Source: a virus (lineage: Duplodnaviria > Heunggongvirae > Uroviricota > Caudoviricetes). Taken from it: DNA of 64,000 nucleotides. Both the position numbers and the translations under genes were made by a program. Of the stretch, positions 29,291 to 59,900 are shown in pieces; position 1 is the stretch's first letter, and each line of letters starts with the position of its first letter. The notes under the pieces are model-generated. The model worked only from the letters and a program-made list of their open reading frames with translations, searched no databases and had not been told where the DNA came from. Where the stretch lies: positions 44,766 to 108,765 of the IMG/VR virus record IMGVR_UViG_3300020152_000001; one strand, written 5' to 3'.

Positions 29291-29347
29291 CATCTAGGCT
29301 CAACCCAGGGGCTTCGGCCCGCAGAAAACGGAGGCAATGCGGCTACA

Positions 29348-40023: not shown

Positions 40024-42102
40024 ATGGAAAAGCTACGGACTGCAATCTGGGACATCGAAACCGATGGCTTGCTCGACAAGCTTACGCGGATTCACGTCCT
40101 CGCTATCCTGGAGCAGGAGTCCCAACGACGTTGGGTATTCCGTCAAAACGCGCGCGAGAACACCATCGAGCAAGGTCTCGAAATGGTGGCGAACGCCGAG
40201 CTGAACGTCGGCCACAACACCCTCCACTTCGACATCCCCGCCTGCGAAAAAGTCTATCCAGGCTTCGAAGTCAAAGGCCGCTGCCGCGACACCTTGGTGA
40301 TGTCTCGCCTCATCTTCCCGGATGAGAAGCAGCGAGACTTCATGCGCTTCGAGCGCGGCAAGCTCCCTGGCAAGCTCATCGGCGCCAACTCGCTCGACGC
40401 CTGGGGCTATCGCCTGAACTGCGGCAAAGGCGACTACAAGGCCGTCAAAGAACAGGAAGCCAAAGACAAAGGCATCACCGACCCTGACGAGATCGCCGCA
40501 TATGTCTGGGGCGAGTGGAATCAGGAGATGGAAGACTACGGCGTCCATGACCCCGTGGTCACTCAAGCGCTTTGGCGCCACTGCAACGCCGCGCGTTTCA
40601 GCGAAGATTCGATTATCCTCGAACATCGCATCCACGACTTTATGGGGAAGCAGGAGCGCAACGGCGTTCCGTTCAATCGCGAAGACGCCGAGAAACTCGC
40701 CGCCGGCCTCGAAGATGAGATGTTTCATCTCGTCGGCATCACCAAAGAGCACTACGGCAGTTGGTACGCTCCGGCGAAGAAGCGCATCGTCGCGCCTCGG
40801 TGGCATGACCCCGAGGGCAAGAACGAAGCGAAGTCGTACAAAGAGCCTCACTTCGAGCACGGCCAAGATCGCAACCGCGCCGTCTGGGGCGAGATCGCGA
40901 TTCCGAAGAAGACCATCCGCTACAAGGATAAGCAAAAAGGCGACCGCACCGAAGGCTGCGCCTACACGCCCATCCAGGTCAAAGAATTCAACCCGCTGTC
41001 GCGGGAAAACATCATCGATCGCTTCATAACCGTCTACGACTGGGACCCTCAGGAATTCACTGAGACCGGCCGGCCGGCGGTGAATGACGACGTTCTCCGA
41101 ACGCTCGTCGAGAAGATTCCCATGGCCGAAGAGCTGGCGGAAATCTTCTTCTACAAAAAGCTTCTGGGCCAGCTGAAGGACGGAGCGCAGTCCTGGCTCA
41201 ACGCCGTCGACGACGACGGCATGATCCATCACTACTGCAACGTCGGCGGTACGATCTCCGGCCGCGCCTCGCACGTCGGGCCCAACCTGGGTCAGGTGCC
41301 GTCTGTCGTCGTCAAAGACATCAAAGACGAGCTAGGCAACAAGATCGGCAAGCAAGTCGTCGAAGGCCGCGCTGGCGACTTTGGCTGGGAATGCCGCAAC
41401 CTCTTCTACGTGCCGGACCCTTACGTGCTCCTCGGCACCGACATGAGCGGCATCGAGTTCCGCTGCCTCGCCAATCTCACATACAAGTACGACAAAGGCG
41501 AACTCCTGGATGTCGTGCTTCACGGCGACATCCATGAGATGAACCGCGAAGCCGCAGGGCTGAAGTCCCGCGCCCAGGCGAAGACCTTCATCTACGCGTA
41601 CATCTACGGCGCCGGCGACTGGAAACTCGGCCACATTGCCGACCCGTATCTCACGGACTCGCAGAAGATTGCACTCGGCAAGCTTCTGCGCCGCACCTTC
41701 GAAGAGCGCATTCCAGCTCTCGGCAAAGTCGTCAAGGAAATCGGTCGCCAAGCTGCGAGCGGCAACATCCTTGGTCTCGACGGCCGCTGGCTGCGCGTTC
41801 GCGGCCAACACGCGGCGCTGAACCTCAAGCTCCAATCGGATGCTGCGGTTCTCGCGAAGCAGTGGATTCTGAACTTCCTCGACGGGATGGACGATGCCGG
41901 CCTCCGCGAAGGCTGGGGCGGCGACTGGGTCCAGCTGCTGTGGGTTCACGACGAACTTCAGCAGGCAATCCTCCCGAAGCACGTCGACTTCGCAAAGCAC
42001 CTCCAAGCGAAGGCCGCGAAGGACGCGGGCGCTCGCTTCGGCTTCGTCCCGCCGGTCGACGTGGAATCGAAAATCGGCCGCACGTGGGCGCAAACACACT
42101 GA
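40024..42102 (+). CDS. family A DNA polymerase (3'-5' exo plus pol domains, no 5'-3' exo)
   Basis: Exo I AIWDIETDGL. Motif A LGTDMSGIEFRCLA, motif B KTFIYAYIYGAG, motif C LLWVHDELQ. Confidence 0.9.
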   Translation: MEKLRTAIWDIETDGLLDKLTRIHVLAILEQESQRRWVFRQNARENTIEQGLEMVANAELNVGHNTLHFDIPACEKVYPGFEVKGRCRDTLVMSRLIFPDEKQRDFMRFERGKLPGKLIGANSLDAWGYRLNCGKGDYKAVKEQEAKDKGITDPDEIAAYVWGEWNQEMEDYGVHDPVVTQALWRHCNAARFSEDSIILEHRIHDFMGKQERNGVPFNREDAEKLAAGLEDEMFHLVGITKEHYGSWYAPAKKRIVAPRWHDPEGKNEAKSYKEPHFEHGQDRNRAVWGEIAIPKKTIRYKDKQKGDRTEGCAYTPIQVKEFNPLSRENIIDRFITVYDWDPQEFTETGRPAVNDDVLRTLVEKIPMAEELAEIFFYKKLLGQLKDGAQSWLNAVDDDGMIHHYCNVGGTISGRASHVGPNLGQVPSVVVKDIKDELGNKIGKQVVEGRAGDFGWECRNLFYVPDPYVLLGTDMSGIEFRCLANLTYKYDKGELLDVVLHGDIHEMNREAAGLKSRAQAKTFIYAYIYGAGDWKLGHIADPYLTDSQKIALGKLLRRTFEERIPALGKVVKEIGRQAASGNILGLDGRWLRVRGQHAALNLKLQSDAAVLAKQWILNFLDGMDDAGLREGWGGDWVQLLWVHDELQQAILPKHVDFAKHLQAKAAKDAGARFGFVPPVDVESKIGRTWAQTH

Positions 42103-42161
42103 CGATGTTAATTTTCGCTTGACTTCTGCGTAAGTCTCGCTTACACCCGGAGAACACTGAC

Positions 42162-42608
42162 ATGACCACCGAGACTCCGGCCGCTACGGCCGATCAGGCT
42201 CCCGACACCGCGAATGCGGTGCCCGCAGCTCCCACCCCTCCGACCCAACGCCGCCAACAGCTTCCGCTGGCGTATCGCGCTGGGATACTGATCGGTCGCC
42301 TCATCCAGGCGTTGACGGTGACGATTGTCTTCGGCCCGCTCCTGGTCGCTGGTTTGAAGCTCTTCGGAGTCGAAGGCTTCGTGGCGCTGGGCTACGCCGC
42401 GATCTTCTCGCCATATCTCCTCATCGTCGTCGCCGCCATCATCTACTCCCTCGCCTTCCACGCGACGTTCGCGGCGACGACGCAGGTGATGACGCAGCGC
42501 GACATGCTCGCCGCGCAATACTACCAGCAGCAGCAAGCCCTAGCCGCAGCAGCGGCGAAGTCGGCGCCGGCGGTGTCCAAGAACTACAAGCGTCGGCGGG
42601 CTCACTGA
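42162..42608 (+). CDS. hypothetical membrane protein
   Basis: Ala/Pro-rich N-terminus then 2-3 TM helices. Confidence 0.45.
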   Translation: MTTETPAATADQAPDTANAVPAAPTPPTQRRQQLPLAYRAGILIGRLIQALTVTIVFGPLLVAGLKLFGVEGFVALGYAAIFSPYLLIVVAAIIYSLAFHATFAATTQVMTQRDMLAAQYYQQQQALAAAAAKSAPAVSKNYKRRRAH

Positions 42609-42609
42609 T

Positions 42610-43224
42610 ATGACGGCGACGCTCTTCTTCGATACCGAAACCACAGGCCGCGTCCAGAAGTGGGATGCCCCTCCGTCCGACCCCTCGCACCCGATGCCTG
42701 TGCAGCTCGCGGCAATCCTCCGCGACGACGACACGCTGAAGGAAATCTCCAGCCTCAACGTCATCATCCGTCCTGAGGGTTGGGTGATTGAGCCCGGCGC
42801 CGCCGCCGTTCACGGCATCAGCCAAGAGTATGCAGCGCAGTACGGCATCGCGTTGGAGAACGCCACGTGGGCGTTCATGGGCATGCTCAACGCCGCTGAC
42901 ATGGTTGTGGCTCACAACCTCCGCTTCGACGCCACGGTCATGCGCCGCGCCGCACACGTCGCCGAGGTCCCGGACATCTTCGCTGAGAAGCGTCCGCGCT
43001 GCACGATGCTGGCTTCGATCCCAATCTGCCGCATCCTCCACAAGCGGCCTCGTCACCCAACGGACTTCAAATATCCGAAGCTCGACGAAGCCATGCTCTA
43101 TTTCTTCAACACCGGCGTCGGCGACGACGCGCACGACGCCCTCGTCGACGTGCGGGCCTGCATCCGCGTTCACGACGAACTCCAGAAGATGCGGGCGTTC
43201 CCTGACATGGCGGCAGCGGCCTGA
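42610..43224 (+). CDS. DnaQ-like DEDDh 3'-5' exonuclease
   Basis: Exo I FFDTETTG, Exo II VAHNLRFD, Exo III AHDALVD. Confidence 0.8.
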   Translation: MTATLFFDTETTGRVQKWDAPPSDPSHPMPVQLAAILRDDDTLKEISSLNVIIRPEGWVIEPGAAAVHGISQEYAAQYGIALENATWAFMGMLNAADMVVAHNLRFDATVMRRAAHVAEVPDIFAEKRPRCTMLASIPICRILHKRPRHPTDFKYPKLDEAMLYFFNTGVGDDAHDALVDVRACIRVHDELQKMRAFPDMAAAA

Positions 43225-43622
43225 TGCAGTTGGCTCTTCAATACCGAGAAGAGCACGCGAAGTTTCCCGTAGGGCGGGTGACTTCGACGTGCTTGCGTGG
43301 CGACGAAGCTTTCAAGCGTCTTCAAGTGGGCGACATCGTCCAGGTTGAGGCCATTGAAGGCGCAAACAACGACATCCGGCACCTCGGCGAAGCCGCGATC
43401 ACGGCGAAGAAGCTCACGACCAAGCTCTTTGTTCTTCGTGACGCCCACGAGAACCACTTCTGTCAAGCGGTCGGCGGCCTGCCGTCGAAGCTCATGCAGG
43501 ACGATCTCGATTGGGCCGAACGCACGCTCGAAGACGTGATCACGGCGCTGCACGGCGAACTCCCGCAGGATGAGGTCTTCACCGTCCTCTACCTACTTCC
43601 CCTCAACGCACGGCAAGACTGA
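43224..43622 (+). CDS. hypothetical protein
   Basis: ATGA coupling. Confidence 0.45.
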   Translation: MQLALQYREEHAKFPVGRVTSTCLRGDEAFKRLQVGDIVQVEAIEGANNDIRHLGEAAITAKKLTTKLFVLRDAHENHFCQAVGGLPSKLMQDDLDWAERTLEDVITALHGELPQDEVFTVLYLLPLNARQD

Positions 43623-43774
43623 TGAAGTATCTCGTTCTCGTCGACGGCTTCGCTTCTTTCGAGTGTGAAGCCGACAATCGCACCGACGCCATCGAGCAAT
43701 ACATCGATGCGTTTGGCGAGACCTCAGCCGAACTCGATGCCGTCCCAGATGACGATCAAGGCTCCTGGTAATGG
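43622..43774 (+). CDS. hypothetical 50-aa acidic protein
   Basis: MKYLVLVDGFASFECEADNRTD.... Coupled to both neighbours. Below the track cutoff. Confidence 0.3.
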
Positions 43775-44832
43775 CCGCTCTCGACTTCAAACAGATTTTC
43801 AACGACTACATCGCCGACACCCAGAAGAAGTGGGCGCACGACCGCTCGACTACGTTGGGTGCGTCGGAAGTCTTCGGCTGCATCCGCAAGGCGTGGTTCT
43901 CGAAGCGCGGCGCCGAGTTCGGCTACGAGAAAGACCCCGACTACGAAGAGTCGTGGGGCGCTACGCGTCGCGGCGACCTCATCGAAAACTTCCACGTGGT
44001 CCCGGCGATGAAATATCTCCCGCCGCCGGCCGAGATCAAATACGCGGGCGAGGATCAAGAGACCATTGTTCTCGATCGCAACTCCGCGACTCCGGACGGC
44101 CTGATCACCGGGCTCACAAAGGATGCGCTGAAGAACTACGGTGTCGACAACATCAAGTCGAACTGCATCGTCCTCGAAATCAAGTCGATCGATCCCCGCG
44201 TCAATCTCAAGGCCGAGAAAGACATTCACCACGGGCAAACCCAGGTGCAGATGGGCATCATTCGTGAGACCACGAAATTCCGTCCGCACTACGCCGTTGT
44301 TCTCTACATCGACGCCAGCTTCCTGGACGACATCAAGGTCTTCGTCGTCGAGTTCGACGAGAAGAAGTGGGAGGTCGCGAAGAAGCGCGCCGGCAATGTT
44401 TGGTCGATCGACGATCCAAAAAAGCTGACCCCCGAAGGCAAGTTCGACGGCAGCTGCGAATACTGCCCGTACACGCACGCTTGCGCTTTCGTCACCAACG
44501 GCATGATCCCAGAGACGTTGGCGAAGAAGGGCAAGTTCGTCGCCGTCGACGACAAGCTACTGGAAACGCTGCTCGCGTCCTATGGCGCTATCACTGAGAA
44601 GAAGAAGGCCGTCGAGGCCGACTACGAACTCATTCGGCAGCAGATCAAGGAACGCCTTGTCGAGGTCGGCGACAGCCGCGTGCAAACCGATCGCGGCAAG
44701 GTCTCGTGGTCGAAGCAAAAGGGCCGCGAAACCCTGGATACCGAGGCCATGGAAGCCGATGGCATCGACCTCGGCAGATACAAAAAGGAAGGCGCTGCCT
44801 TCGACAAGCTGACGATTACGCTCGACGATTGA
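43771..44832 (+). CDS. PD-(D/E)xK exonuclease, Cas4/YqaJ-like with C-terminal Cys cluster
   Basis: GASEVFGCIRKAWF, VLEIKS (E-x-K), CEYCPYTHAC cysteine cluster. Confidence 0.6.
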   Translation: MAALDFKQIFNDYIADTQKKWAHDRSTTLGASEVFGCIRKAWFSKRGAEFGYEKDPDYEESWGATRRGDLIENFHVVPAMKYLPPPAEIKYAGEDQETIVLDRNSATPDGLITGLTKDALKNYGVDNIKSNCIVLEIKSIDPRVNLKAEKDIHHGQTQVQMGIIRETTKFRPHYAVVLYIDASFLDDIKVFVVEFDEKKWEVAKKRAGNVWSIDDPKKLTPEGKFDGSCEYCPYTHACAFVTNGMIPETLAKKGKFVAVDDKLLETLLASYGAITEKKKAVEADYELIRQQIKERLVEVGDSRVQTDRGKVSWSKQKGRETLDTEAMEADGIDLGRYKKEGAAFDKLTITLDD

Positions 44833-44929
44833 CGTAAGTCCGCCTGACACGGTGAGAAGAGAGAAGAGCAAAGGCCAGAAGTGCGTCCACCGACGTAAGT
44901 TTCACTAACCCCGAAAGGAAAGTCCCACC

Positions 44930-45664
44930 ATGGGCAACGAAGTAGCAGTGCGAAATCAAAGCAACGCGGTCGCGACCGCAGCTGATCAATGGGCCGACCT
45001 CGCCAACCAATACAGCGCTGGCGGCGGTGACGGCGGCGGCGTCCAATTCCTGAAGTTCAACGGCAACGACGGCGAATTCACCTACGGCGCCAATCGCGAA
45101 GTCCTCGACATCGGCACGCAGCTCGCCGTCAACATGGAGAGCTACGAAGTCGGCTTCATCTGCTGGAAAGAGGGCGAAGTCGTCGACGAGAAGATGGTGC
45201 CGATCGTCTCCGGCCAGTCGGTCAGCAAGGCCGATCTCCCGGATCACGGTCCCTACAAGACCTACGAAGACGGCACGAAAGACGGCTGGTCCGAGCAGCG
45301 TTCGGTGAACTTCAAGGGCATCGAAGACGGTACCGATTATCAGTTCAAGACGACCTCGAAGTCGGGCCTCATCGCCCTGGGCAACCTCCTCCGCGACTTC
45401 GCGAAGGGCGTGAAGCTCAACGACGGCAAGGTCCCGGTGATCGAACTCGCGATCAACACCTTCACGCCGAAGAACAACCCCCGCGCCGGCAAGAAGCACG
45501 CGCCGACGTTCAAGATCGTCGCCTGGGTCGATCAGAACGAACTCGCGGAAACGATCTCCAGCAACAGCGCCGCTGCGGCTGAAGAAGAAGTCGCGGCTCC
45601 GCCGCCGCCTCCGCCAGCTCCGGCTCCGGCCGCTGAGGGCGGTCGTCGCGGCCGTCGCTTCTAA
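44930..45664 (+). CDS. hypothetical protein (possible ssDNA-binding/annealing protein by context)
   Basis: Sits between a nuclease and a helicase. Pro/Ala-rich C-terminal tail. Confidence 0.4.
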   Translation: MGNEVAVRNQSNAVATAADQWADLANQYSAGGGDGGGVQFLKFNGNDGEFTYGANREVLDIGTQLAVNMESYEVGFICWKEGEVVDEKMVPIVSGQSVSKADLPDHGPYKTYEDGTKDGWSEQRSVNFKGIEDGTDYQFKTTSKSGLIALGNLLRDFAKGVKLNDGKVPVIELAINTFTPKNNPRAGKKHAPTFKIVAWVDQNELAETISSNSAAAAEEEVAAPPPPPPAPAPAAEGGRRGRRF

Positions 45665-45679
45665 CGACTGAAGGACCAC

Positions 45680-45707
45680 GGAGGCGGCTTCGGCCGCCTC
45701 CGGTTCT
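45680..45707 (+). terminator. terminator-like hairpin
   Basis: GGAGGCGGC-ttcg-GCCGCCTCC is a perfect 9-bp stem with a tetraloop, followed by GGTTCT. Confidence 0.4.
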
Positions 45708-45710
45708 GAG

Positions 45711-47066
45711 ATGCCGACGCTCTCCCCCCAACAAGAGGATGCCGTTCGCGGAGTCGCCAAGTGGTTTGGTGATTCACCGCACGCGCAGCCTCATAAGCTC
45801 GCGGGCTTCGCCGGCACCGGCAAGTCGACAATCCTCCCGTACATCATCGAAGAATGCGGACTGCAGCCTTCGCAAGTGGCATTTTGCGCCCCCACCGGCA
45901 AAGCCGCAAAGGTGATGACGGAGAAGTTCAAGGCCCAAGGCTGGGACGATGTCGCGGCCAACACCATCCACAAGCTCATCTACAAGCGCCCGGACGACAA
46001 AGCCGATGGCGTGAAGAAACTCCTCGATAGCGCCGAGGACAAGGCCAACGATCTCGCGGCACAGCTGACGGCCGCACGGGCGCAGGGACGCGCCCCCGAA
46101 GAAGTCAGCAAGCTCGAAGTCGACCTCGCCGGCGCCGAGAAGAACGCCAAGGACTTGCAAGCTCGCTTCAAGGAAGCTCTGAGCACGCGCAAGTCCGGCC
46201 TTCGCTTCGAACTCAACAGCGGCTCTCCCATCCGCATGAAGCAGCTCGTCGTCGTCGACGAGGCTTCAATGGTGTCCGAAGAACTCGCTAACGATCTCCG
46301 AGGCTTCGGCGTCCCCATCCTCGCCATCGGCGACCCCGGCCAGCTGCCGCCGGTCTCCGGCGGCATGGGCTTCGACATCACACGGCCGGACTCCTTTCTC
46401 TCGGAGATTCACCGGCAAGCGGCCGACAATCCCATCATCTGGTTGTCGAAGGAAATCCGTGAAGGCCGGCGGCCGGACTACGGCAGCTACGGCGACGGCA
46501 TTCTCCGCATCCTCACGAAGAAGCAGGACGATGTCACTGAAGACGTTGGCCGCGATCTTCAAGTCATTTGCGGAACCCATGCCACGCGCTGGCGGCTGAC
46601 GCAGAAGATTCGAAAGGCCGCTGGCTACACGTCGACGGGTCCGCAGAAGGACGAGCCCCTACTCGTCTGCCGCAACTCGCAGACCATCCCCACGCTCGTC
46701 AACGGCTCGTTCGTCTACTGCGAAGAAGACGTTGGCGAACTCGTGCCGCAGTCCGACAGCTTCGAGGTCAAGTTCACCGACGAGTACGGCGAAACGCGGA
46801 AGCTCCGCGTGCTCCAGGCGCTGTTTGAAGAGCACCTGCTGCGAAAGCAAGGCGCCGCGACCATCACCGATCGCCAGCTCTGGATGGCGCGGAAGTCGTA
46901 CCACCAGCTCGACTTCGGATGGGTGCTGACCTGTCACAAGTCGCAGGGCAGTCAGTGGGATGAAGTCGTCGTCCACGACGAAAGCTCCCGCTTCCGCGAA
47001 GACTCCGACAAGTGGCTCTACACGGCGGTCACGCGTGCGGCGCAGCGTCTGACGGTGATCGTATGA
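45711..47066 (+). CDS. RecD/Dda-like SF1 helicase
   Basis: GFAGTGKST, VVVDEASMV, GDPGQLPPV, TCHKSQGSQWD, LYTAVTRA. Confidence 0.85.
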   Translation: MPTLSPQQEDAVRGVAKWFGDSPHAQPHKLAGFAGTGKSTILPYIIEECGLQPSQVAFCAPTGKAAKVMTEKFKAQGWDDVAANTIHKLIYKRPDDKADGVKKLLDSAEDKANDLAAQLTAARAQGRAPEEVSKLEVDLAGAEKNAKDLQARFKEALSTRKSGLRFELNSGSPIRMKQLVVVDEASMVSEELANDLRGFGVPILAIGDPGQLPPVSGGMGFDITRPDSFLSEIHRQAADNPIIWLSKEIREGRRPDYGSYGDGILRILTKKQDDVTEDVGRDLQVICGTHATRWRLTQKIRKAAGYTSTGPQKDEPLLVCRNSQTIPTLVNGSFVYCEEDVGELVPQSDSFEVKFTDEYGETRKLRVLQALFEEHLLRKQGAATITDRQLWMARKSYHQLDFGWVLTCHKSQGSQWDEVVVHDESSRFREDSDKWLYTAVTRAAQRLTVIV

Positions 47067-47404
47067 CCGCGACATACGAAGACTATCGCCGAGAACTCGC
47101 AGAGGCCGTCGATCTCACAGAGACCGTGATCTCGGCGACAACCAACCTTCTCACCTTCCTGGAGAGCCTGCGTGTCTCCGTGCCCGAAGTCTGGCAGGAT
47201 GACGACACTCTCGATCTCCGCTGGGAGGGCGACAAGCCCTACACCGCATGGACGCTGCACGTGTCCGAGAAGCGGACGATCGCCGTCTACACCAATCTCC
47301 GAGGCGAAGGCTACGGCGTCGCCGTCGAAGACTATGAGCACCTGAAGAGGTTGCTCGCCGACACCCGCATCGCCTTCGTCATCGAGAAAGCCAATGTCTG
47401 CTAG
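47063..47404 (+). CDS. hypothetical protein
   Basis: ATGA coupling with the helicase. Confidence 0.4.
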   Translation: MTATYEDYRRELAEAVDLTETVISATTNLLTFLESLRVSVPEVWQDDDTLDLRWEGDKPYTAWTLHVSEKRTIAVYTNLRGEGYGVAVEDYEHLKRLLADTRIAFVIEKANVC

Positions 47405-47993
47405 GCCCGCCAACGGTCCCGAATTCTGGGACGTGATTCTCCGCGACATCAGACGCGAGAACCCCAGCATCCAGCCCATCATTGCCGGTGGCGCCGTCCG
47501 CGACTTCATCCTCGGCGGCGAAGCCAAGGACATTGATGTGTGGTTCTACAAGTCGACGCGCGGTGGCCCGACGACCGCGACCATGCACAAGGCCAAGCGT
47601 TGGACTCGTGTCGTACCCGATGACGAAGACGAGAACGAATACGCCAGCAACAGCCGGCTGAAGATGCTGCACAACTACGCCTTCTACGGCTGGGACGTGC
47701 AGCTCATCGGCGTCGACGTGTTCCCCTGGGGCTGGGAGTCACTCGTCAACGACTTCAACATCGGCCTTTCGAAGATGGCCTATGACGGCGCCGTCCATGC
47801 TCACGCCGACGCCCTCACGGACATCGCCAACAAAACCGTGAGCATCGTCAAACCCAACGCAGGCGAACGCCTGAAGCGGTGTGTCGGCAAGGCCACGGCG
47901 CTCGCAGCGAAGTACGGCTTCGACAAGAGCAACATCATCCCAGCGGCCATGAGCGTAGTCGACGATTTCGAACTCGAAGAGGTCCCGTTCTAA
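47394..47993 (+). CDS. CCA-adding-enzyme-like nucleotidyltransferase head domain (Pol-beta superfamily)
   Basis: IIAGGAVRDFILGGEAKDIDV matches the class II tRNA nucleotidyltransferase GGxVRD...DxD catalytic motif. Only 199 aa, so no body or tail domain. Confidence 0.55.
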   Translation: MSARPANGPEFWDVILRDIRRENPSIQPIIAGGAVRDFILGGEAKDIDVWFYKSTRGGPTTATMHKAKRWTRVVPDDEDENEYASNSRLKMLHNYAFYGWDVQLIGVDVFPWGWESLVNDFNIGLSKMAYDGAVHAHADALTDIANKTVSIVKPNAGERLKRCVGKATALAAKYGFDKSNIIPAAMSVVDDFELEEVPF

Positions 47994-48586
47994 TGGCGGC
48001 ATGGATCGAGGGCTACGTCTCTCGGTTCGACACCGAAGACTGCTACGGAGACATCAACTTAGAAACCTGCTTCGACGTGTTTCTTCGGCGCTACCGCACC
48101 GTCTTTGAGTGCGGCGTCCCCATGCTCATCGAGCACGACGACAAGAGGCTCTGCGGGCGCTGGTACAGGTTCTGGAAGGACAAGGACGGTCTCATTGGCC
48201 GTGGTGAAATCTTCCGTCATCGGAAACATGGCCGCAACGCCGTCGCCGGGATTCTAGACGGCAGTCGTCGCGATCTCAGCATCGGTTTCTGGCACTCGCG
48301 GAGCCGACACGATTCCAGCCGTTGGTATCGCGTCGATTCCGACGACAAGAAGACCATCAAGTTTCTGCGGAAGGGCGGCCGGCGGCTGATCCCTTCCCAA
48401 ACCGAGGCCCAGGCCTTCGCCTTCAGGCCGTTTGTTAAGACCCGCATCCTCATCGGCGAGGTCTCGCTCGTTAACCGAGCCGCCTGCGTTGGGTCGCGGG
48501 TGCAACAAATCGTTAACCACGGGGTCAGTTTGCCTGACTTCGGCGCAATTCCGCTTGACATTCAGTCAGCGTCAGTATCTAACTAG
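47993..48586 (+). CDS. HK97-family prohead protease-like protein (peptidase S78/U35-like)
   Basis: IEGYVSRFDTEDCYGD...PMLIEHDD...LSIGF follows the S78 pattern (GYASVF..D..GD...HD...LSiGF). Located in the replication module, away from any head genes. Confidence 0.4.
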   Translation: MAAWIEGYVSRFDTEDCYGDINLETCFDVFLRRYRTVFECGVPMLIEHDDKRLCGRWYRFWKDKDGLIGRGEIFRHRKHGRNAVAGILDGSRRDLSIGFWHSRSRHDSSRWYRVDSDDKKTIKFLRKGGRRLIPSQTEAQAFAFRPFVKTRILIGEVSLVNRAACVGSRVQQIVNHGVSLPDFGAIPLDIQSASVSN

Positions 48587-48595
48587 GAGGATGAA

Positions 48596-49558
48596 GTGCA
48601 GTTCCAAGTCGTCGCTATCGCCGGCCGCAAGTTCGCCGGCAAGGACACCGCAGCGCAGGCTCTCGTCGATGAGGGCTATGTGAACGTGAAGTTCGCGACG
48701 CCGTTGAAACTGATGATCCGCACGCTGCTGGAGGCCCGGGGGGCCACGGCCGATGAAGCCGAGCGGATGACGGACGGCGATCTCAAAGAAGTCGTGACAC
48801 CGCTGCTGGACTTCAGCAATACCGGCTCCAGCGAACTCCAGGTGCTGGCCACGGCCATGCTCCGCGTTCTCCTCACGTATCAGGGCGTAAGTGACTATGA
48901 CGCCGGTGTGATGCTGGAAGGCAACGCGAAAGACAAAGCGACGAAATACCTCCAATTCCGAACCCCTGCTTACGCGTTGGAAACCCTGGCTGGCCTATGG
49001 CTGGGGAAAATCATGTCGGCAGGCCCGGCCACCAGCCGGTACGCGATGCAGACGCTTGGGACGGAATGGGGTCGCGATACCATGGGCGAAGGCCAGTGGG
49101 TTGATGCAGCCGTCAACTGCATCGAAGAGATCAAGAAGTCCGGCGGCAAGGCCGTCGTCTCTGACATGCGCTTTCCCAACGAAGGCGACGCCATGGACAC
49201 CATCGGCGCCCTGAAACTTCGCGTTCGTCGCTCCGGAGACCCGCAACAGTTCAACAGCTTCTCCAACCACCCGAGCGAGACCGCGATCGACGACCTGTCG
49301 GTTCATCTTGACATCGATAACGACAGCACGATCGAAATGCTGCACGGCCGCGTGAAGCTCGCGGCGCAGAACCAGAAACAAGTCCGCCTCGTCGAAACCA
49401 TCGACCGCTCCGAACTCGAAGCCATGGGCGGAAATCTAGTCACGCATCCGAAGCTCGCCGGCGCCTACTCGGTGCTTTCTCAGTACCAGGACGATGCCAC
49501 TCGGAAGCTGAAAGTCGAATTTCTTGCGCTACGCCCGATTTTGGACTTGGCGGCATAG
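48596..49558 (+). CDS. dNMP kinase domain protein (T4 gp1-like) with C-terminal extension
   Basis: VAIAGRKFAGKDT matches the T4 gp1 P-loop (SGVKRSGKDT). Confidence 0.55.
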   Translation: MQFQVVAIAGRKFAGKDTAAQALVDEGYVNVKFATPLKLMIRTLLEARGATADEAERMTDGDLKEVVTPLLDFSNTGSSELQVLATAMLRVLLTYQGVSDYDAGVMLEGNAKDKATKYLQFRTPAYALETLAGLWLGKIMSAGPATSRYAMQTLGTEWGRDTMGEGQWVDAAVNCIEEIKKSGGKAVVSDMRFPNEGDAMDTIGALKLRVRRSGDPQQFNSFSNHPSETAIDDLSVHLDIDNDSTIEMLHGRVKLAAQNQKQVRLVETIDRSELEAMGGNLVTHPKLAGAYSVLSQYQDDATRKLKVEFLALRPILDLAA

Positions 49559-49638
49559 GACGAATTTCGCGCGTAGGGAGTACGCGTGAAAAATGCGCCG
49601 TTTCAGCTGAGAAGCGGCCTGGAATACATCAACGGGCT

Positions 49639-49977
49639 GTGTATTCAGCCCACAGGGACAAAGCTGCGGAAAGGCGAACACCAATGGCTGAAGTTGCAAT
49701 GAAATTTATCGATCTCCTGGCGACGGCGGTGCCGACTGTTCAGGTGCAGATCGATGTCGAACACAGCGAGGACGAGAAGGACAAGCCGGCGACGTTGGCG
49801 ATGATCTACGCGCTCACAGTCCACCGCCTCGTGCAATCTGGTGACATGAACGCTCTCAGCCGCCGCGTCTGCGCCGACCTGTATCCTCGCCTCGCTCCTA
49901 CACCACCTAGGGAGCAATCGGCGGATGCCGAGTCCATCGTCCAACAACAACAAGAACAACCGACCGTCACCCACTAA
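49639..49977 (+). CDS. hypothetical protein
   Basis: ORF in operon. Start uncertain. Confidence 0.3.
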   Translation: MYSAHRDKAAERRTPMAEVAMKFIDLLATAVPTVQVQIDVEHSEDEKDKPATLAMIYALTVHRLVQSGDMNALSRRVCADLYPRLAPTPPREQSADAESIVQQQQEQPTVTH

Positions 49978-50308
49978 GGAAGAGCTGCAAGCTCTTCGCG
50001 ATCAGGGACTATCTCGCGAACAGATGGCCGAACGCTACGGCGTAGGCCTATCTCAGATGAAGCGCTGGATTGCAGCGCTGGGCGTGAAGCCAGCCGCGAA
50101 GCGGCCATCTCGGGCCCGCCCGAAGAAGCAAGAAGAACCCAAGCTCGAAGACGGTTTCTCTCTCGTTGACATCGCCGCGTATCGACTCGGCGATCGTCTT
50201 ACCGAGCGTAAAGGTCGTGGCTATTATCTCGACGGGCAGCCTGCGAGCACGGCGACAATCCTCGCCGCCGCAGGGTTAGATTTCCTCGACGCAAAGCCGC
50301 GACATTGA
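49925..50308 (+). CDS. HTH DNA-binding protein (GcrA-N-terminal-like?)
   Basis: LRDQGLSREQMAERYGVGLSQMKRWIAALGV is an HTH resembling the GcrA / sigma region 4 type. Confidence 0.4.
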   Translation: MPSPSSNNNKNNRPSPTKEELQALRDQGLSREQMAERYGVGLSQMKRWIAALGVKPAAKRPSRARPKKQEEPKLEDGFSLVDIAAYRLGDRLTERKGRGYYLDGQPASTATILAAAGLDFLDAKPRH

Positions 50309-50455
50309 TTCTTGCGGCCGTCAGTTTTATTGACACGGCCGGCAAGCGTCGCTATCCTCGTCCTTCATCCCAAAAGCCGCACGGCCTAGCCGGCGAGACC
50401 TTGCGTCCGCCGGACGCCTCCCCTGTTGCCTCCAACCAAGAAGGTCACAAGACCC

Positions 50456-52495
50456 ATGAAACTCCGTCCGTCCGTCCGCGCCGAAATCGTCGAGCATCGC
50501 ACCTATCTCCGCCCGCTCGATGACGAGGGCGCAGTATTCGAGACGACGGAGCAAGCAGTCGACCGCATCATCGGCCATCAGCGATGGCTTTGGGAGCGCG
50601 CCCGTGGTGAGGCGTTGGGTCCGACACAGGAAGCCGAACTCTCGGAGCTTCGCCAGCTTCTCATTGAACGCAAGGTCACTGTCGCCGGCCGCACGCGTTG
50701 GCTAGGCGGCACTGAAGTCGCCCGGCGTCGTGAGTCCTCGCAGTTCAACTGCGCTCACCTCGAAATCCGCACCGTCCACGACATCGTCGACTCGTTGTGG
50801 CTCCTGCTGCAAGGCTGCGGCGTCGGCTTCACTCCGGTGCCTGGAAGTCTCAATGGATTCCAGTGTCCGATTCCCGAAGTCGTCGTGAAGCCGAGCGCCG
50901 TGACGAAGGAAGCGTGGGAAGCCGGCGTTCGTGGCCGCGAGAACAACCGCGAAAGCTTCAACCGCCGCACCGGCGTCTGGACAATCACCGTTGGCGACAG
51001 CGCCGAAGCCTGGGCGAAGTCCATCGGCAAGATCATGGCCGGCAAGTATCCGGCGAAGAAACTCGTACTCGACTTCTCGCAAATTCGTCCAGGCGGTATT
51101 CGTCTGAAGGGCTACGGCTGGATCAGCAGCGGCCACGAGCCCATCGCCAACGCCTTTAAGAAGATCGCCGAGATCATGAGCGCCCGCGCCGGGCAGCTCC
51201 TGTCGAAGATCGACATCCTCGACATCATCAATCTCCTCGGCACCATCCTGTCATCGCGTCGATCGGCGCAAATCGCTCTCGTGGAATTCGGCAGCCCAGA
51301 GTGGGTCGAGTTCGCGAAAGCCAAGGCCAACTACTGGGCGCCGGAAGTCAACAAGCCCTGGCGCGCTCAATCCAACAACAGCTTGGTCTTCTACCAGCGG
51401 CCGACTCGCGACGACATCCGCAGCATCCTCGAAATCATGATGGCTGCCGGCGGCAGCGAACCCGGCTTCATCAATGGCGTCGCCGCTCGCGTTCGCGCCG
51501 CTTGGTTCAAGGGTGCGAACCCCTGCGCCGAAATCCTCCTCGGCGATCGTTCTTTCTGCAACCTCGTCGAAGTCGTTCTCTTCCGCTTCAACGGCGATCG
51601 TCAGGCCCTATACCGCGCCTTCTGGCTCATCGCCCGTGCGAACTACCGGCAGACGTGTGTCGACCTCGACGACGGCATCCTCCAGCGCGGTTGGCACGAA
51701 CTCAACGAGTTCTTGCGGCTCTGCGGCGTTGGCGTCACCGGCGTCGTCTCCTGGGATAGCCACGGCGACCCCATTGCGTGGCAGCAACTCCGGCTTGCGG
51801 CTGTAGACGGCGCCAACTCCATCGCCGACGAACTCGGCCTGCCCCGAGCTAAGGCCGTGACCACGATCAAGCCCAGCGGCACGCAATCCAAGGCCCTCAG
51901 CCTCGAAGGCCAGGAAGTGCCAGAAGGCATTCACAAGCCCCTGGGTCGCTTCATCTTCAACAACATCGGCTTCGGCCGGCATGATCCCCTGGTCGCGAAG
52001 CTCAAACGAGCCGGCTACTACGTCTTCGATAATCCCTACGACGCCACCGGCGTCCTCGTCCGCATTCCCGTGGAATTCTCCAACATCGAGTTCGACGCCG
52101 TCGAGCGCGAGATCAACGGCGAACGCGTGGTCGTCGAGGTCAATCAAGAGTCGGCGATCTCTCAGCTGGAGCGCTACAAGCTCGTGATGGAGAACTACGT
52201 CGACCACAACGCCTCGATCACGGTCTCCTACGACCCCTCCGAGGCCGATGAGATCGCGGACTGGCTGCACAACAACTGGGACATCTACGTCGGAGTCAGC
52301 TTCCTCTATCGCAACGACCCCGCGAAGACGGCGGCCGATCTCGGCTACGCGTATCTGCCGCAGGAAGTCGTCGATGAGCGCACCTATCGAGAATACGTCG
52401 CCGGCCTGAAGCAGCTGAATTTGCGTGGCACCGACTCCTTCGACGAGGTCGAACTCGGCGATCAATGCGCGACTGGCGCTTGCCCGATTCGTTAA
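50456..52495 (+). CDS. nrdJ: class II (adenosylcobalamin-type) ribonucleotide reductase-like
   Basis: NPCAEILLGDRSFCNL matches the RNR NPCGE...CNL active-site motif. C-terminal CATGAC cysteine pair. Start moved to ATG at 50456 behind aagaagg; the track start is TTG. Confidence 0.55.
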   Translation: MKLRPSVRAEIVEHRTYLRPLDDEGAVFETTEQAVDRIIGHQRWLWERARGEALGPTQEAELSELRQLLIERKVTVAGRTRWLGGTEVARRRESSQFNCAHLEIRTVHDIVDSLWLLLQGCGVGFTPVPGSLNGFQCPIPEVVVKPSAVTKEAWEAGVRGRENNRESFNRRTGVWTITVGDSAEAWAKSIGKIMAGKYPAKKLVLDFSQIRPGGIRLKGYGWISSGHEPIANAFKKIAEIMSARAGQLLSKIDILDIINLLGTILSSRRSAQIALVEFGSPEWVEFAKAKANYWAPEVNKPWRAQSNNSLVFYQRPTRDDIRSILEIMMAAGGSEPGFINGVAARVRAAWFKGANPCAEILLGDRSFCNLVEVVLFRFNGDRQALYRAFWLIARANYRQTCVDLDDGILQRGWHELNEFLRLCGVGVTGVVSWDSHGDPIAWQQLRLAAVDGANSIADELGLPRAKAVTTIKPSGTQSKALSLEGQEVPEGIHKPLGRFIFNNIGFGRHDPLVAKLKRAGYYVFDNPYDATGVLVRIPVEFSNIEFDAVEREINGERVVVEVNQESAISQLERYKLVMENYVDHNASITVSYDPSEADEIADWLHNNWDIYVGVSFLYRNDPAKTAADLGYAYLPQEVVDERTYREYVAGLKQLNLRGTDSFDEVELGDQCATGACPIR

Positions 52496-54208: not shown

Positions 54209-54285
54209 TGGCGCACCCGACAGGATTCGAACCTGTGACCTCTGCCTTCGGAGGGCAGCGCTCTATCCAGCTGAGCTATGGGTGC
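54209..54285 (-). tRNA. tRNA-Arg (anticodon CCG)
   Basis: Reverse complement GCACCCATAGCTCAGCTGGATAGAGCGCTGCCCTCCGAAGGCAGAGGTCACAGGTTCGAATCCTGTCGGGTGCGCCA folds as a cloverleaf. Anticodon loop CTCCGAA. T-loop GGTTCGAATCC. 3' CCA is encoded. Confidence 0.85.
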
Positions 54286-54355: not shown

Positions 54356-55516
54356 ATGGCATCCGTATATCCGGTGACGCTTAAGAACAAGGCCGGTGTC
54401 GAACGCACCGTCTATCGCGTCCAATACACAAACGCCAATGGCAAGCTGAAGCAGAAGCAGTTTCGCAACAAGCGTTTGGCTAACTCCTGGATCAGTGCCG
54501 GCGGCCACGTCGCCGTAGAGGCGGCACCGATCGAAGCCACGGGCTCCAAGTTCTCTGCCATCGCTAAAGCCTGGGTCTCCGCCTGCGAACGCGGCCTCCA
54601 CGGCGAAATGCCGCTCGAAGTCTCCGTCACCGAGGGCTATCGCTCCTATCTTAAGAACTGGATCAATCCCGAGATCGGAGACCTCGACATCGCCGATGTC
54701 GATCGCAACCGCTTCAGGGAATTCCGAGACTGGGTCTTAGAACAAGGCCTCGCGCGGGCGACCGCGAAGAAGATCGTTGGCATCGCCCGCAGCGTCATCA
54801 AGTACGCACTGGACACCGACCTCATCCCCGCCGACCCAACGACGGGAATCACCGTCAAGCTCGCTTCTGGGAGGCATAGGGACCGCTCGACAAAGCGGCT
54901 GCCGGTACATTCCAAGGCAGACATGAAGAAGCTGCTGGCGGTGTCGGCTGAACTCGCGAAGGCCGAGGACAAGCGGACCTCGATCGCCTGGGCTCGCTAT
55001 AGACCCATGCTTCTGCTCTTCGTCTACGCGGGCTTGCGGTCGTCGGAACTCCGGGGACTGCCGAGAGACATGTTCGATCACGCCGAGGGCTCCGTGGAAG
55101 TGAAGCAGCGCGCCGATCGCTACGGCGTCATTGGCCCGCCGAAGTCGACGGCCGGTTATCGCATCATCCGTCTCCCGCGTTGGGTCGCTGACGAAGTCGC
55201 GGAATACCTGAAGACGCACGACCACGAACTCGTCTTCCCTGCCCGACGCAGCGGCGAGCCGATGTCACGCGAGAACATCGAGCGGAGAATGTGGACGCCG
55301 TTGCAAAAGAAGGTCGGAGTGTCTGTGCTGGGTCTCCACTCGATCCGTCACTTCTTCGCGTCGAGGTTGATTGAGCTTGGCGCAAACTCTAAGCAGCTCC
55401 AAGAGCGCATGGGTCACCACAGCGAGAGCTTCACCAAAGACGTGTACGGGCATCTCTTCAAAGACGAAGAAAACATCCGTGCCGACCAGCAACTCGCCGA
55501 ACGGCTGACGCTCTAA
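54356..55516 (+). CDS. int: tyrosine integrase
   Basis: 386 aa. C-terminal HSIRHFFASRLIELG...GHHSESFTKDVYGHL gives the R-H-R-Y catalytic signature. Adjacent to the tRNA. Confidence 0.85.
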   Translation: MASVYPVTLKNKAGVERTVYRVQYTNANGKLKQKQFRNKRLANSWISAGGHVAVEAAPIEATGSKFSAIAKAWVSACERGLHGEMPLEVSVTEGYRSYLKNWINPEIGDLDIADVDRNRFREFRDWVLEQGLARATAKKIVGIARSVIKYALDTDLIPADPTTGITVKLASGRHRDRSTKRLPVHSKADMKKLLAVSAELAKAEDKRTSIAWARYRPMLLLFVYAGLRSSELRGLPRDMFDHAEGSVEVKQRADRYGVIGPPKSTAGYRIIRLPRWVADEVAEYLKTHDHELVFPARRSGEPMSRENIERRMWTPLQKKVGVSVLGLHSIRHFFASRLIELGANSKQLQERMGHHSESFTKDVYGHLFKDEENIRADQQLAERLTL

Positions 55517-56877: not shown

Positions 56878-56905
56878 CACTATCACGCGTTAGCCAAACT
56901 GTCAA
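56878..56905 (-). promoter_or_regulatory. putative promoter TTGACA-N14-TGATAGTG (leaderless class) for the holin-spanin cassette
   Basis: Near-identical to 26963..26990. Overlaps the stop codon of the tail-fibre gene. Confidence 0.4.
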
Positions 56906-59900
56906 GCCGAGGCGGTAATGACGGCGTACCCGTCGCCACCCTTCTGGGCCAGGATTGAGGGGTCGTCTCCTGCGGTGCCGCCCACGGCGATCGGGGCGCC
57001 CGGATAGTCGGGGTCCGCTGTCCCTGCCGGCGTCGCGAAGTTGCCGGCCGTGGTCGAGCCCGAGGTCGCGCCGGCATCGACGTAGCCGCTACCGCCGCCG
57101 CCGGGGTGACCGTCGCCGCCGCCGCCGCCACCGCCCCAATAACCGCCGCCGCCGCCGCCACCGTCATCGGAGGTGGTGGTGAAGCGATCGGCTGTAGCCG
57201 TGCCGAAACCATTGCCGCCTCGGACCTGGGTGCCGGTCTTGCCGAGATTGCTGGTGTCGCTGCGATCGTTGCCGCCGGCCAGCTGAGTGCCGCCGCTGCC
57301 GCCGGTGGTGCCGCCGCTGTCTTGGCCGCTGGTGCCGCCCCCGGCGCCGCCGTCGCTAGAGCCGAAGCCCACGCCGCCACCACCGGCACCGGCCACGGCC
57401 ACGAGAACGTCGTTGATGTAGACTCGGGTCGAGCCACCGCCACCACCGCCGGCCACGTCACCGCGAGCACCGTCACCGCCGTCCGGCCAGCCGCCGGCGC
57501 CACCTTCAGTGAGGTAGACGCCCGGGCCGCCGCCGCCGCCGACTTCGACTTCGACGACATCGCCTTCGGAGACCGCGAACGTGGCTTCAGTGAAGCCGCC
57601 GCCGCCGCCGTCTGAGGAACCGCTGACGTAGATGCCGCCGCCGCCGCCGGCGCCCCACAGCTTCACCGAGATCGAACTCACGCCGGCTTCAACGATGTAG
57701 CGGCGCCGCGTGCCCGTGTGAGCGACTTCGTAGGTGTTACCGGCGATCAGGCTGCCGACTACCGTGAGGAAACCGGAGACCACGGGAGTAAGGGCCGTGG
57801 TCGCCAGGAGGTTATATGCGCGGCCGAGGACCAGCGTCGACACCGTCACCGGCGACGTGTGAACCGCAGTCCAGTCGAGATCGAAGCCGTCAGCCGTAAA
57901 CCCGTCCCAGTCGGCCCGAAGCGCCGTCGCTGACGTGTCGCGACCGATGTAGAAGACGTTGTCGGCGGCGGCAGAACCGCAATTCGAAGGGTCGGTTGCT
58001 TGGTTGAAAGCACCCAAACCCACACCGCCGGCTTCATCAAAAGCGGCGATGCCGAAGCCAGATGCCTGGGCGTTTTCGAAGTACGGGGTGTCGAAGGCCT
58101 CCGCCGAGCTGCCGATCATCAGCGCGAACTCAGGCTGAAAACCGAGCCCGGTGATGCTTTGCACGCCAGTCGTCGTCGGCGTCATGAACGACAGCACGCG
58201 AGCATCGACACCGGGGACGTGAACGAAGAGCGTGATGTTGTCGTCGCCAGTGATGGTGTTGTTGGCTTCGCTGGTGAAGCCGTCTGCATTGAACGACTTC
58301 CAACGGACGAAGCGGTTGAGGGCTGCAGAGTTGTGAGACGCGAAAACTTGGGCCTTGTCTTCGGACATATACAAAGACGGACGGCCGGCGATGCTCTGAG
58401 AGGTCTGTTGAATCCAGTTGACGCTCGCTTGGTTCGCGTTCTTGTCGACGAATCCCAGGCCCGCAGCGAAGACGCCGTTGCTGCCGTCGCCGTTGCCGAG
58501 GTTAGAGAACTCGCCGCCGATGACGCCAAACGTCGGGTGGAAGCCAATGTGGTCGTAGAGAACTTCCAGGTTTGGATTGTGCAGGGCACTGTTGCGGACG
58601 ACGCCTGCCTTCACGTCATGGCCGGCGATGATAACGGCAAAAAACTGGCGTTGCGTGGCTTCGACGGTCGTGAAATTCAGACGCACACCATCAGCGATGA
58701 AAGAGTCGACTGCGGCCCGCACGGCTTGGGCACTGACGGTTTCGCCAGGAAGCGCGGTCGAGATCACGGCATCGTTGTTCTGCATCCGCTGTTCGGATTC
58801 AGCGTCCGATATGCCCTGATTGTCCTCGATCGTCGCCGATACGCACATTTGATGATACGGCGTCGCGGCGCCGAACGCGTAGAGGACGTGATCTGCGGTG
58901 CTGTTCGCTGGAGACTGGCCGCCGAAGATCAGCACGGCTTTCGGAACACGGCCGCCGAGTGCCGTGTCGGTGATGTCGAGAGTGCCGGTAGCCGTTGGCG
59001 TGAGGAACGGCACCACTGCCATCTTGAAGTCGATGTCGTTGTCGCGTTCGATGTAGCCGGACGCCCGAGCATCGTATTGAACGGTCTGCGGGTTCTCACT
59101 CGTCGTCAGCGGGATCATGCTAGGCGAGCCGTTGGCGAACGTGCTCGTCACCTGCAGCGCCAAACCCGATGGCAGCACGCCGGGGTCTTCAGAACGCGTG
59201 TAGGAAGCGCCGCCGAAGTTGAAGCCAATCCAAACAACGTCGCCACGCCGCAGGAAGATCGGGTGCAGAAGCGGGATGTCGTTGTCGCCAACAGACAAAC
59301 CCGTGACCGTCGCCGTCCGAGTCAGCAACAGACCCGGACCATCGGTGCAGTCCGTGAAGATGAGGCCGCGAATGTCCGTCGCCGGCGCCGCCGTTCCCGT
59401 ATAGAAGTGCATGGTATCGAGCCACATGTCTTCTGGCGCGATAAACTTCCGGGCGCGGATGTTGTTGATCGAGCCCGTGGAGTTTGCAGGCTCCACCGGC
59501 GGCGGGGCCGTCATGAACTCTTCTTCGTCAGCGAATGCGAAGATGAAGGCCTTACCGTCAGAGCCGGCGAGAGACTCACCACTCAAGCGATAGCCAAGGC
59601 CGACTTCGTAGCCGTGCTGGTAGCGGCCAGCAGCGGCATTGGTGCTGCGAATAGTCGTGTAGCCATCGATGAAGTCAGCGGAGTTCGCAGCGTAGCCGCT
59701 GCCACCGCCACCGCCAGTAGCAGCGCCGCCGGCGCCGCCGAAGTAGCCGCCGCCACCACCGCCTGAGTACTGGCCGGAGGATTGAACGGTGGTCTCAGAA
59801 TCGCCGTCGTTGAAGCCGTCTCCGCCAAAGCGGCCGTCGCCGCTACGGGTCTCATAGCCGGCGAGACCCTGAATACCGGCGCTGTCTTGATCGGCCGCGA

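Follow-up and report, generated by a model that had tools for sequence, protein, structure and literature searches.

Why a phage should encode a protease homologue of a capsid-maturation family among its replication genes, coupled to a nucleotidyltransferase, is the question raised by a 64,000-nt stretch of DNA from a Caudoviricetes virus (IMG/VR record IMGVR_UViG_3300020152_000001, positions 44,766 to 108,765). This whole stretch is hereafter called the window, and coordinates refer to it unless another locus is named. A first-pass annotation had placed a nucleotidyltransferase (NTase) gene at 47394-47993 and a prohead-protease-like gene at 47993-48586; both open reading frames (ORFs) were recovered at these positions on the + strand, encoding proteins of 199 and 197 amino acids (aa), respectively, and they are coupled through a TAATG stop/start overlap (47991-47995, + strand, read from the sequence) in which one base is shared. 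To our knowledge, HK97/assemblin-fold proteases have been treated as strictly morphogenetic, acting in proheads and being encoded beside portal and capsid genes. The explanation that we favor, and to which we give an even chance of being right, is that the two genes, for a minimal NTase and a tail-less S78 protease, form with the 113-aa ORF preceding them (orf113) a conserved three-gene accessory cassette that would serve in counter-defense or host takeover. From its intact catalytic residues and lost capsid-targeting tail, the protease appears to have taken on a function outside the capsid. The families themselves are known ones, in an unusual and rare partnership.

A protease homologue outside the head module

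The product of the downstream gene of the pair, which is maintained by selection, belongs to the HK97 prohead-protease superfamily and has kept both the catalytic His and Ser and the assemblin fold, in line with the HK97 pattern reported in the first-pass annotation. Pfam Peptidase_S78 (PF04586) matched residues 4-108 of the protein over profile positions 15-121 of 165 (E = 9.2e-10, 39.3 bits, gathering score 21), and PHROG 80, annotated as 'head maturation protease', matched with an E value of 2.8e-10. In alignments of the window protein and its relative from a second phage with 23 S78 proteins and HK97 gp4, the residues D16, H48, G55, G66, G71, S96, (I97), G98, E156, and S158 were invariant with the canonical proteases. 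The suggested check on the catalytic residues thus gave a positive answer, with H48 (codon 48134-48136, + strand) equivalent to gp4 His65, the H in FFNHKTW, and S96 (codon 48278-48280, + strand, in LSIGF) equivalent to gp4 Ser114, the S in GMSVGF. An AlphaFold2 (AF2) model of the protein (pLDDT 83, pTM 0.73) adopted the assemblin fold, and Foldseek searches with this model recovered from the PDB the proteases of human cytomegalovirus (HCMV), Epstein-Barr virus (EBV), pseudorabies virus (PRV), and Kaposi's sarcoma-associated herpesvirus (KSHV) together with T4 gp21 (5jbl), and from BFVD a series of prohead proteases (TMq 0.6-0.67, E values down to 7e-13). The ratio of nonsynonymous to synonymous substitution rates (dN/dS) between the two known copies was 0.33 for the protease gene, compared with 0.13 for the helicase gene and 0.36 for the kinase gene at the borders of the cassette, and the value of 0.33 indicates that the protease gene is under purifying selection. 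The invariance of D16, H48, S96, E156, and S158, the modeled fold, and this dN/dS value together suggest that the protease homologue is probably active.

The protein shares with HK97 gp4 and the S78 prohead proteases (clan SH, which also holds T4 gp21 and herpesvirus assemblin) the fold, the catalytic His and Ser, and D16, G55, G66, G71, and E156-x-S158, but it has lost the N-terminal ~28 residues and most of the C-terminal extension of gp4. The N-terminal segment is missing from the relative as well. Following the EVS motif, the C-terminal stretch comprises ~40 aa, as opposed to ~80 in HK97 gp4, and the tail and the helix region around LRDxGLS... are either shortened or gone, with a remnant of the conserved post-domain segment still visible (HGVSLPDFGAI vs AGLS...). 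The C-terminal part of HK97 gp4 directs the protease into the prohead. In addition, the window protein and its relative carry two insertions, one of 18 aa after the LSIGF strand and another of 15 aa further on, and the PAN of the family is replaced by RAA or RAS. Canonical S78 proteases scored 83-121 bits on the Pfam model, against 39 for the window protein, which also fell short of the equivalog cut-off of 59 bits for NCBIfam TIGR01543 (proheadase_HK97) at 37.9 bits. A full HMMER search of 1.84 billion representative proteins returned 298 matches at E <= 1e-3, with only the protein itself below 1e-30 and the next match at 1.3e-10; the nearest matches were S78 proteases of the ordinary kind, several of which are joined to capsid proteins of the HK97 type, and the nearest canonical one (P0006) sits on a 1-kb contig.

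Low family-model scores, two insertions, the change from PAN to RAA, and great rarity (two instances among the 1.84 billion representative proteins) are features that would also be expected of a catalytically dead binding module or of a decaying remnant of a captured head gene. We consider this reading improbable, given that both copies, although diverged, retain the His, the Ser, and the remaining invariant positions, that neither of the two phages has a broken ORF even though the orthologues share only 67% identity, that its dN/dS is similar to that of the neighboring kinase gene, and that the fold was modeled with confidence. As a separate observation, a region of BFVD entry A0A6J5NDH2_1, a 1394-aa 'DNA 3'-5' helicase' of an uncultured phage, was also retrieved as an S78 fold (E = 1.9e-7, rank 41), and this model may represent another S78 fold outside a capsid context.

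S78 proteases are usually encoded in the head module, whereas the gene described here lies in a replication operon and is coupled to an NTase gene. The proteins of this genome are also encoded on a 132,745-bp ENA contig (ERZ27252484 k141_12613), and contig ends overlap by 141 bp within the window (locus L005 ends at 54209 and locus L003 at 54349), as is characteristic of a circular assembly made with k=141, and this gives a genome of ~132.6 kb. By walking along the same genome outside the window (loci L018 and L020), we reconstructed a head module in which TerL (L020:3480-5252) is followed by the portal gene (L018:2787-4517; phrog_145), five tRNA genes with an HslV-like ORF and ThyA, the scaffolding protein gene (L018:10001-10801; phrog_206, E = 2.5e-36), the gene for a 309-aa major head protein (MCP; L018:10965-11894; phrog_212, E = 6.6e-85), PhoH, and the tail genes. 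The MCP starts directly with the conserved body, the delta domain being absent. No second S78 gene was found in 120.5 of the 132.6 kb (91%) by hmmsearch --max with a 25-sequence S78 alignment or its canonical-only version, while the same searches recovered the window protease ORF with E values of 2e-49 and 7e-31, respectively. The protease gene and the MCP gene are ~42 kb apart on the circular map, the head genes as a whole being at least 42 kb off, and the head module does not include the protease gene. Its position among replication genes was as the first-pass annotation had described, but the distance of 15 kb to any structural gene given there was too large, as a 2153-aa tail protein gene (56902-63363, - strand) lies ~8.3 kb away. 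An artefact of the window borders was rejected, since no S78 gene accompanies the TerL, portal, scaffold, MCP, and tail genes that were found on walking beyond the window; adjacency to portal or capsid genes in the wider genome, raised earlier as a possible refutation, was thus not what the reconstruction revealed. The HslV-like ORF (L018:6017-6544, 175 aa) matched a peptidase family unrelated to S78 (PHROG 1040, E = 1.7e-15) and is located between the portal and the scaffold/capsid genes.

A real prohead maturation protease might nevertheless be encoded far from the head genes that it serves, and the facts that no other S78-type gene turned up in 91% of the genome, that its catalytic residues are intact, and that the remnant post-domain segment can still be recognized speak for such a role. 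The head module, however, has its own scaffold and an MCP without a delta domain; the N-terminal segment and much of the C-terminal extension of the protease are gone; the gene is embedded in the replication operon in coupling with the NTase gene; and the protein scores well below canonical proteases on Pfam and below the NCBIfam equivalog cut-off. Furthermore, Mesorhizobium phage Cp1R7A-A1, the head genes of which are related to those of the window phage (MCP 72%, portal 43%, scaffold 39%, and TerL 38% identity), has neither an S78-like nor an NTase-like ORF in its complete 131-kb genome, indicating that such heads can be built without an S78 protease. On the basis of the distance from scaffold-type head genes, the missing N terminus and tail, and the lack of an S78 gene in Cp1R7A-A1, the protease homologue is probably not the head protease of this phage, and we assign a low likelihood to the alternative. 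Between the two options of the first-pass annotation, a misplaced morphogenetic gene is accordingly unlikely, the head module being of the scaffold type and without an S78 gene, and a repurposed protease fold is the better supported.

Layout and relatives of the three-gene cassette

The unit to be explained comprises three genes rather than two, since a conserved 113-aa ORF overlaps the NTase start. This first cassette gene, orf113 (47063-47404, + strand), begins with an ATG that overlaps the stop codon of the preceding helicase gene (ATGA) and ends with 11 nt that overlap the start of the NTase gene; it had no family match in Pfam, PHROG, NCBIfam, or PADLOC, and its dN/dS between the two known copies was 0.49. 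The three genes occupy 1.5 kb. They are bordered on the left by a RecD/Dda-like SF1 helicase gene (45711-47066, + strand; Pfam AAA_30, AAA_19, and UvrD_C_2) and on the right by a deoxynucleoside monophosphate (dNMP) kinase gene with a GTG start (48596-49558, + strand; Pfam DNMK, E = 1.2e-13; PHROG 139, E = 6.6e-40), which is preceded by a 9-nt spacer containing AGGAGGA. No promoter-like site was found on the + strand within 42000-50330, and the sole + strand terminator-like match in that interval (48412-48429) is weak, has a poor T-tail, and lies inside the protease ORF. The gene overlaps and the absence of an internal promoter confirm a tightly packed operon segment. According to ORFs and Pfam/PHROG assignments, this segment is part of a + strand gene run (43.7-52.5 kb of the window) that starts, upstream of the helicase, with genes for a Cas4/PD-(D/E)XK-like 353-aa protein (p353) and a 244-aa protein (p244), and that continues after the kinase with two small ORFs and a class II ribonucleotide reductase (RNR) gene (50426-52495, + strand). 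Both GC content and GC at third codon positions (GC3) of the cassette equal those of the neighboring genes, so that composition gave no support to a recent horizontal acquisition.

Comparison with two other phages suggested how the cassette is distributed. A relative that is 67-71% identical (loci L001/L010) keeps the cassette with the same overlaps, its orf113 (L001:5571-5918) being 49.5% identical to that of the window, and the TTCTAATGGC junction in L001 is identical to the NTase/protease junction of the window. Cp1R7A-A1 shares the surrounding replication genes (p353 45%, p244 39%, helicase 45%, and RNR 52% identity, with DNMK also syntenic), yet its helicase gene (78749-80146) is followed by an ORF of 86 aa, unrelated to orf113, and then by the dNMP kinase gene. 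This synteny without the three genes shows that orf113, the NTase gene, and the protease gene have been inserted at a conserved junction. Searches for more NTase/protease pairs retrieved two proteins from a word-index search, only a 14-kb fragment from IMG/VR, none from GenBank phages, and none from GTDB (one genome per species), and a metagenome scan with the tail chaperone yielded only a weakly related locus (L006) that was left out of the comparisons. The pair is thus known from two instances only, with co-occurrence in 2/2.

The genome that carries the cassette is a siphovirus-type phage related to large phages of Alphaproteobacteria. No nucleotide-level relative of the window was found among GenBank phages; the tail tube protein shares 46-52% identity with its counterparts in large alphaproteobacterial siphoviruses (Erythrobacter, Phaeobacter, Mesorhizobium, Sphingobium, and Caulobacter phages), and the window genes include rIIA/rIIB, DNA polymerase A, helicases, a primase, and the two RNA ligases reported in the first-pass annotation. 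From the nearest relatives of its structural proteins, the phage probably infects an alphaproteobacterium. The rIIA and rIIB homologues (27089-30679, + strand; E values of 9e-120 and 4.5e-61) occur here in a siphovirus-type genome with an integrase. The 2153-aa tail protein showed matches to Phage-tail_3, to Rcc01698_C, which is gene transfer agent (GTA)-like, and weakly to the glycine-rich ALK_LTK_GRD, and a 657-aa collagen-like/CBM_5_12 protein is encoded upstream in the tail module (L007:5471-7444). At the left end of the window (1-709, + strand; full gene at L019:7601-8875) lies the gene for a 424-aa protein with BCS1_N and AAA domains; the BCS1 family comprises protein translocases of the mitochondrial type, which is unusual for a phage. 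Between ThyA and the scaffold gene, gene calling also placed an ORF of 197 aa (L018:8122-8715); its Arg/Gly/Pro-rich product had no family match, it is probably not a real gene, and tRNA genes (L018:9045-9469) are situated just downstream of it.

The nucleotidyltransferase and the tRNA-repair question

The NTase carries IIAGGAVRDFILGGEAKDIDV, which is the class II motif A, encoded at 47487-47537 (+ strand; G32-G33-A-V-R36-D37 ... D46-I-D48) and representing the metal-binding catalytic signature. Within this motif (GGAVRD-x8-DID), G32, G33, R36, D37, D46, and D48 were the same in all of seven phage homologues and in both Cca and PcnB of E. coli. Pfam PolyA_pol (PF01743) matched only residues 30-50 (E = 9.6e-4), and with 19.9 bits it remained below the gathering score of 23, while PHROG 1614 ('nucleotidyltransferase') matched with an E value of 6.7e-16. 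A profile of the seven homologues aligned by hhalign with residues 5-152 of the 412 residues of E. coli Cca (probability 89.3%, E = 2.1e-6), an extent that corresponds to the head and the start of the neck, with the body, tail, and HD domains absent. The class II catalytic signature and the lack of body and tail described in the first-pass annotation were therefore borne out, but its designation of the protein as head-domain-only went too far in denying it any neck. Beyond motif A, the NTase has in common with the class II tRNA NTases and poly(A) polymerase (Cca and PcnB) a motif-C-like DIANKTV and a motif-D-like ExxxR, whereas the body, tail, and HD domains and the RRD of motif B are absent from it: the place of motif B, which serves ribose recognition, is taken by V118-N119-D120 at a position that is not conserved among the phage homologues, and at the place of motif D (EDxxR), which serves base selection, the protein reads E158-R-L-K-R162 against E-D-P-L-R in Cca, so that the E and the R are kept and the D is lost, family conservation being partial. 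Residues ~52-98 form a long, acidic, poorly conserved loop after the catalytic strand. The NTase gene had a dN/dS of 0.47 between the two known copies. Neither the NTase nor the protease homologue had a significant match when their sequences were searched against the PDB.

The precomputed Pfam label of the source database for the NTase is PF26128 (Gad2; E <= 1e-5). Gad2 (Gabija anti-defense 2), a phage protein of 400 aa in which an NTase domain is predicted, has experimentally verified anti-Gabija activity (bioRxiv 10.1101/2023.05.01.538930); phage SPbetaL7 needs Gad2 to resist Gabija, and a Gad2 homologue suffices to block Gabija (bioRxiv 10.1101/2023.05.01.538930). We compared the seven phage NTases by hhalign with two Gad2 sequences from the supplement of that study, namely SPbetaL7 ORF_159 and a Brevibacillus laterosporus homologue (PF26128). 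Residues 25-158 of the NTase aligned with Gad2 residues 26-138 over 110 columns (probability 95.6%, E = 1.2e-8), and at the level of sequence profiles the NTase is closer to the Gad2 N-terminal domain than to E. coli Cca. Both proteins are phage-encoded and share IIAGGA...D(V/I)D..YF, (V/L)Q(L/M)I, and FDxx(L/V)C/S..(Y/F)D. They differ in that Gad2 comprises ~400 aa as opposed to 199, the C-terminal ~260 residues of Gad2 being absent from the window NTase, and in that R36-D37 of GGxxRD, kept by the window NTase, is lost by Gad2. The N-terminal ~140 residues of Gad2 themselves resemble a class II NTase head (IIAGGA...DVDIYF...FDFTVCMG) from which the R-D of GGxxRD has gone. By these profile alignments, the NTase is a class II-type catalytic core homologous to the Gad2 N-terminal domain. 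A fission of Gad2, with the protease or orf113 supplying the missing C terminus, was rejected at an hhalign probability of <1%. Two further NTase types did not suit the protein either: phage cGAMP-synthase-type NTases (Bcp1) carry the motif GS...SDxD, and the MNT/kanamycin nucleotidyltransferase (KNT) type, which had been named as an alternative, has a GS-x9-10-(S)DxD signature that is absent here, in place of which GGxxRD...DxD is found. For the latter type there was no MNT/KNT match in Pfam, NCBIfam, or PADLOC, and the neighbors are orf113 and the S78 protease, with no HEPN-type partner.

The wider NTase family is found without the protease. PHROG 1614 relatives occur in Bordetella phage BB8 (p30), Caulobacter phages KSC (gp012) and Percy, Ralstonia phage BOESR1, Pseudanabaena phage PA-SR01, and Citrobacter phage Tr1; these small proteins (176-224 aa) have the size range of the window NTase, and the Bordetella, Ralstonia, and Caulobacter members belong to T7-like phages of ~42 kb. 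As in the window, the genes are placed among replication and nucleotide-metabolism genes, always in the company of those for primase/helicase, DNA polymerase, or RNR. In the relatives examined, no S78-like gene follows the NTase gene and no orf113 homologue precedes it.

The first-pass annotation had proposed tRNA 3'-end repair or RNA tailing, according to which the NTase would restore CCA or add A-tails in concert with the RNA ligases and the protease would be an unrelated neighbor. The class II motif A and the profile match to E. coli Cca residues 5-152, the motif-D-like E158...R162, the presence of two RNA ligases in the window, and at least six phage tRNAs are in keeping with this proposal. 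The body and tail domains of class II enzymes hold the tRNA, and the NTase has neither; its motif B RRD is replaced by an unconserved VND, and its PolyA_pol score lies under the gathering score. CCA is already encoded in 6/6 of the phage tRNA genes found: in the complete tRNA-Arg(CCG) gene (54209-54285, - strand), confirmed here, and in genes for tRNA-Tyr, -Ile, -Met, -Leu, and -Pro located between the portal and scaffold genes (L018:5234-9469). The tRNA-Ile prediction, which runs into the 5' end of the thymidylate synthase gene, may be spurious. CCA-adding enzymes are known as RNA-repair genes in large phages (PMC7824862), which counts for the proposal, but members of this NTase family occur also in small T7-like phages inside replication modules, the RNA ligase genes are >20 kb from the NTase gene on the other strand, and the NTase profile is nearer to Gad2 than to Cca. 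In view of the encoded CCA, the distant ligases, the loss of motif B, and the lack of domains that bind tRNA, a dedicated CCA-repair role is possible but not favored. The Gad2 affinity weakens it further, and we regard tRNA repair as an unlikely explanation of the locus.

The tRNA-Arg(CCG) gene lies 70 nt from a tyrosine integrase gene (54356-55516, + strand), near which genes for helix-turn-helix (HTH) regulators are found. This may be where the attachment site of a temperate phage is located. The 141-bp contig-end overlap lies at the same tRNA-Arg/integrase site.

Possible functions of the cassette

The reading that we prefer, a cassette for counter-defense or host takeover, would have the protease act in the cytoplasm as a soluble serine protease that is made along with the replication proteins, in a ratio to the NTase that would be fixed through translational coupling, and the pair would act on a non-capsid target. 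In its most likely version, the NTase would modify a nucleic-acid 3' end or make a nucleotide product and in this way blunt a nuclease-type defense, as Gad2 counters Gabija, while the protease would either process the NTase or orf113 or degrade a host factor. A more specific form of this proposal, which we put forward tentatively as a lesser possibility, is that a capsid-maturation protease was domesticated as a soluble effector with a Gad2-like NTase and is made with the replication proteins instead of the late head proteins. Two versions of it can be envisaged from the sequences. In the first, the NTase would be a protease-gated enzyme, switched on when the protease cuts its long variable loop or removes orf113; in the second, the phage protease would destroy a host immune protein.

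A precedent for a link between the two enzyme classes exists in the cyclic-oligonucleotide-based antiphage signaling system (CBASS), where phage prohead proteases activate the cGAS/DncV-like NTases (CD-NTases) by cutting a surface loop (PMC12991175). Assemblin-fold proteases are thus capable of acting on NTases in the cytoplasm, and the first version would mirror this activation on the side of the phage. In both cases a Pol-beta-fold NTase is paired with an assemblin-fold phage protease, functionally so in CBASS; however, the CBASS NTase is host-encoded and cGAS/DncV-like, whereas the window phage encodes both genes and its NTase is class II/Gad2-like. Alternatively, the cassette could be a prophage-borne defense or superinfection-exclusion module that senses incoming phages. 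Integrase and HTH genes do lie 6-7 kb downstream, and NTase-plus-protease combinations occur in bacterial immunity, CBASS being an example (PMC12991175). On the other hand, PADLOC returned no match for the cassette genes, no copy was present in GTDB with one genome per species, and neither a promoter nor a terminator belongs to the cassette itself, which is coupled to the helicase gene of a lytic replication operon. We judge this possibility to be very remote.

Several points weigh against a joint counter-defense or takeover role. The co-occurrence of NTase and protease is statistically weak because only two instances are known, and since the NTase family is common without a protease neighbor, the two proteins may act independently. 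The anti-defense label amounts to the homology of one domain, given that the C-terminal ~260 residues of Gad2 are absent. The AF2 model of the NTase, built from two sequences, reached a pLDDT of only 31.7. The change from PAN to RAA in a conserved motif could affect the activity of the protease, and the 12.2 kb (9%) of the genome outside the S78 searches, at ~62.5-74.7 kb of the ENA contig, could hold a second protease.

The importance of the cassette is limited by its rarity, with two instances among billions of proteins. If the proposal is true, the assemblin fold is able to take on further roles during infection, and either version of the domesticated protease would be the first assemblin-fold protease with a non-capsid phage role in the literature searched. 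The locus also bears on what Gad2-type NTases do and, now that CBASS has recently been shown to sense prohead proteases (PMC12991175), on the linkage of proteases and NTases in phage-host conflict.

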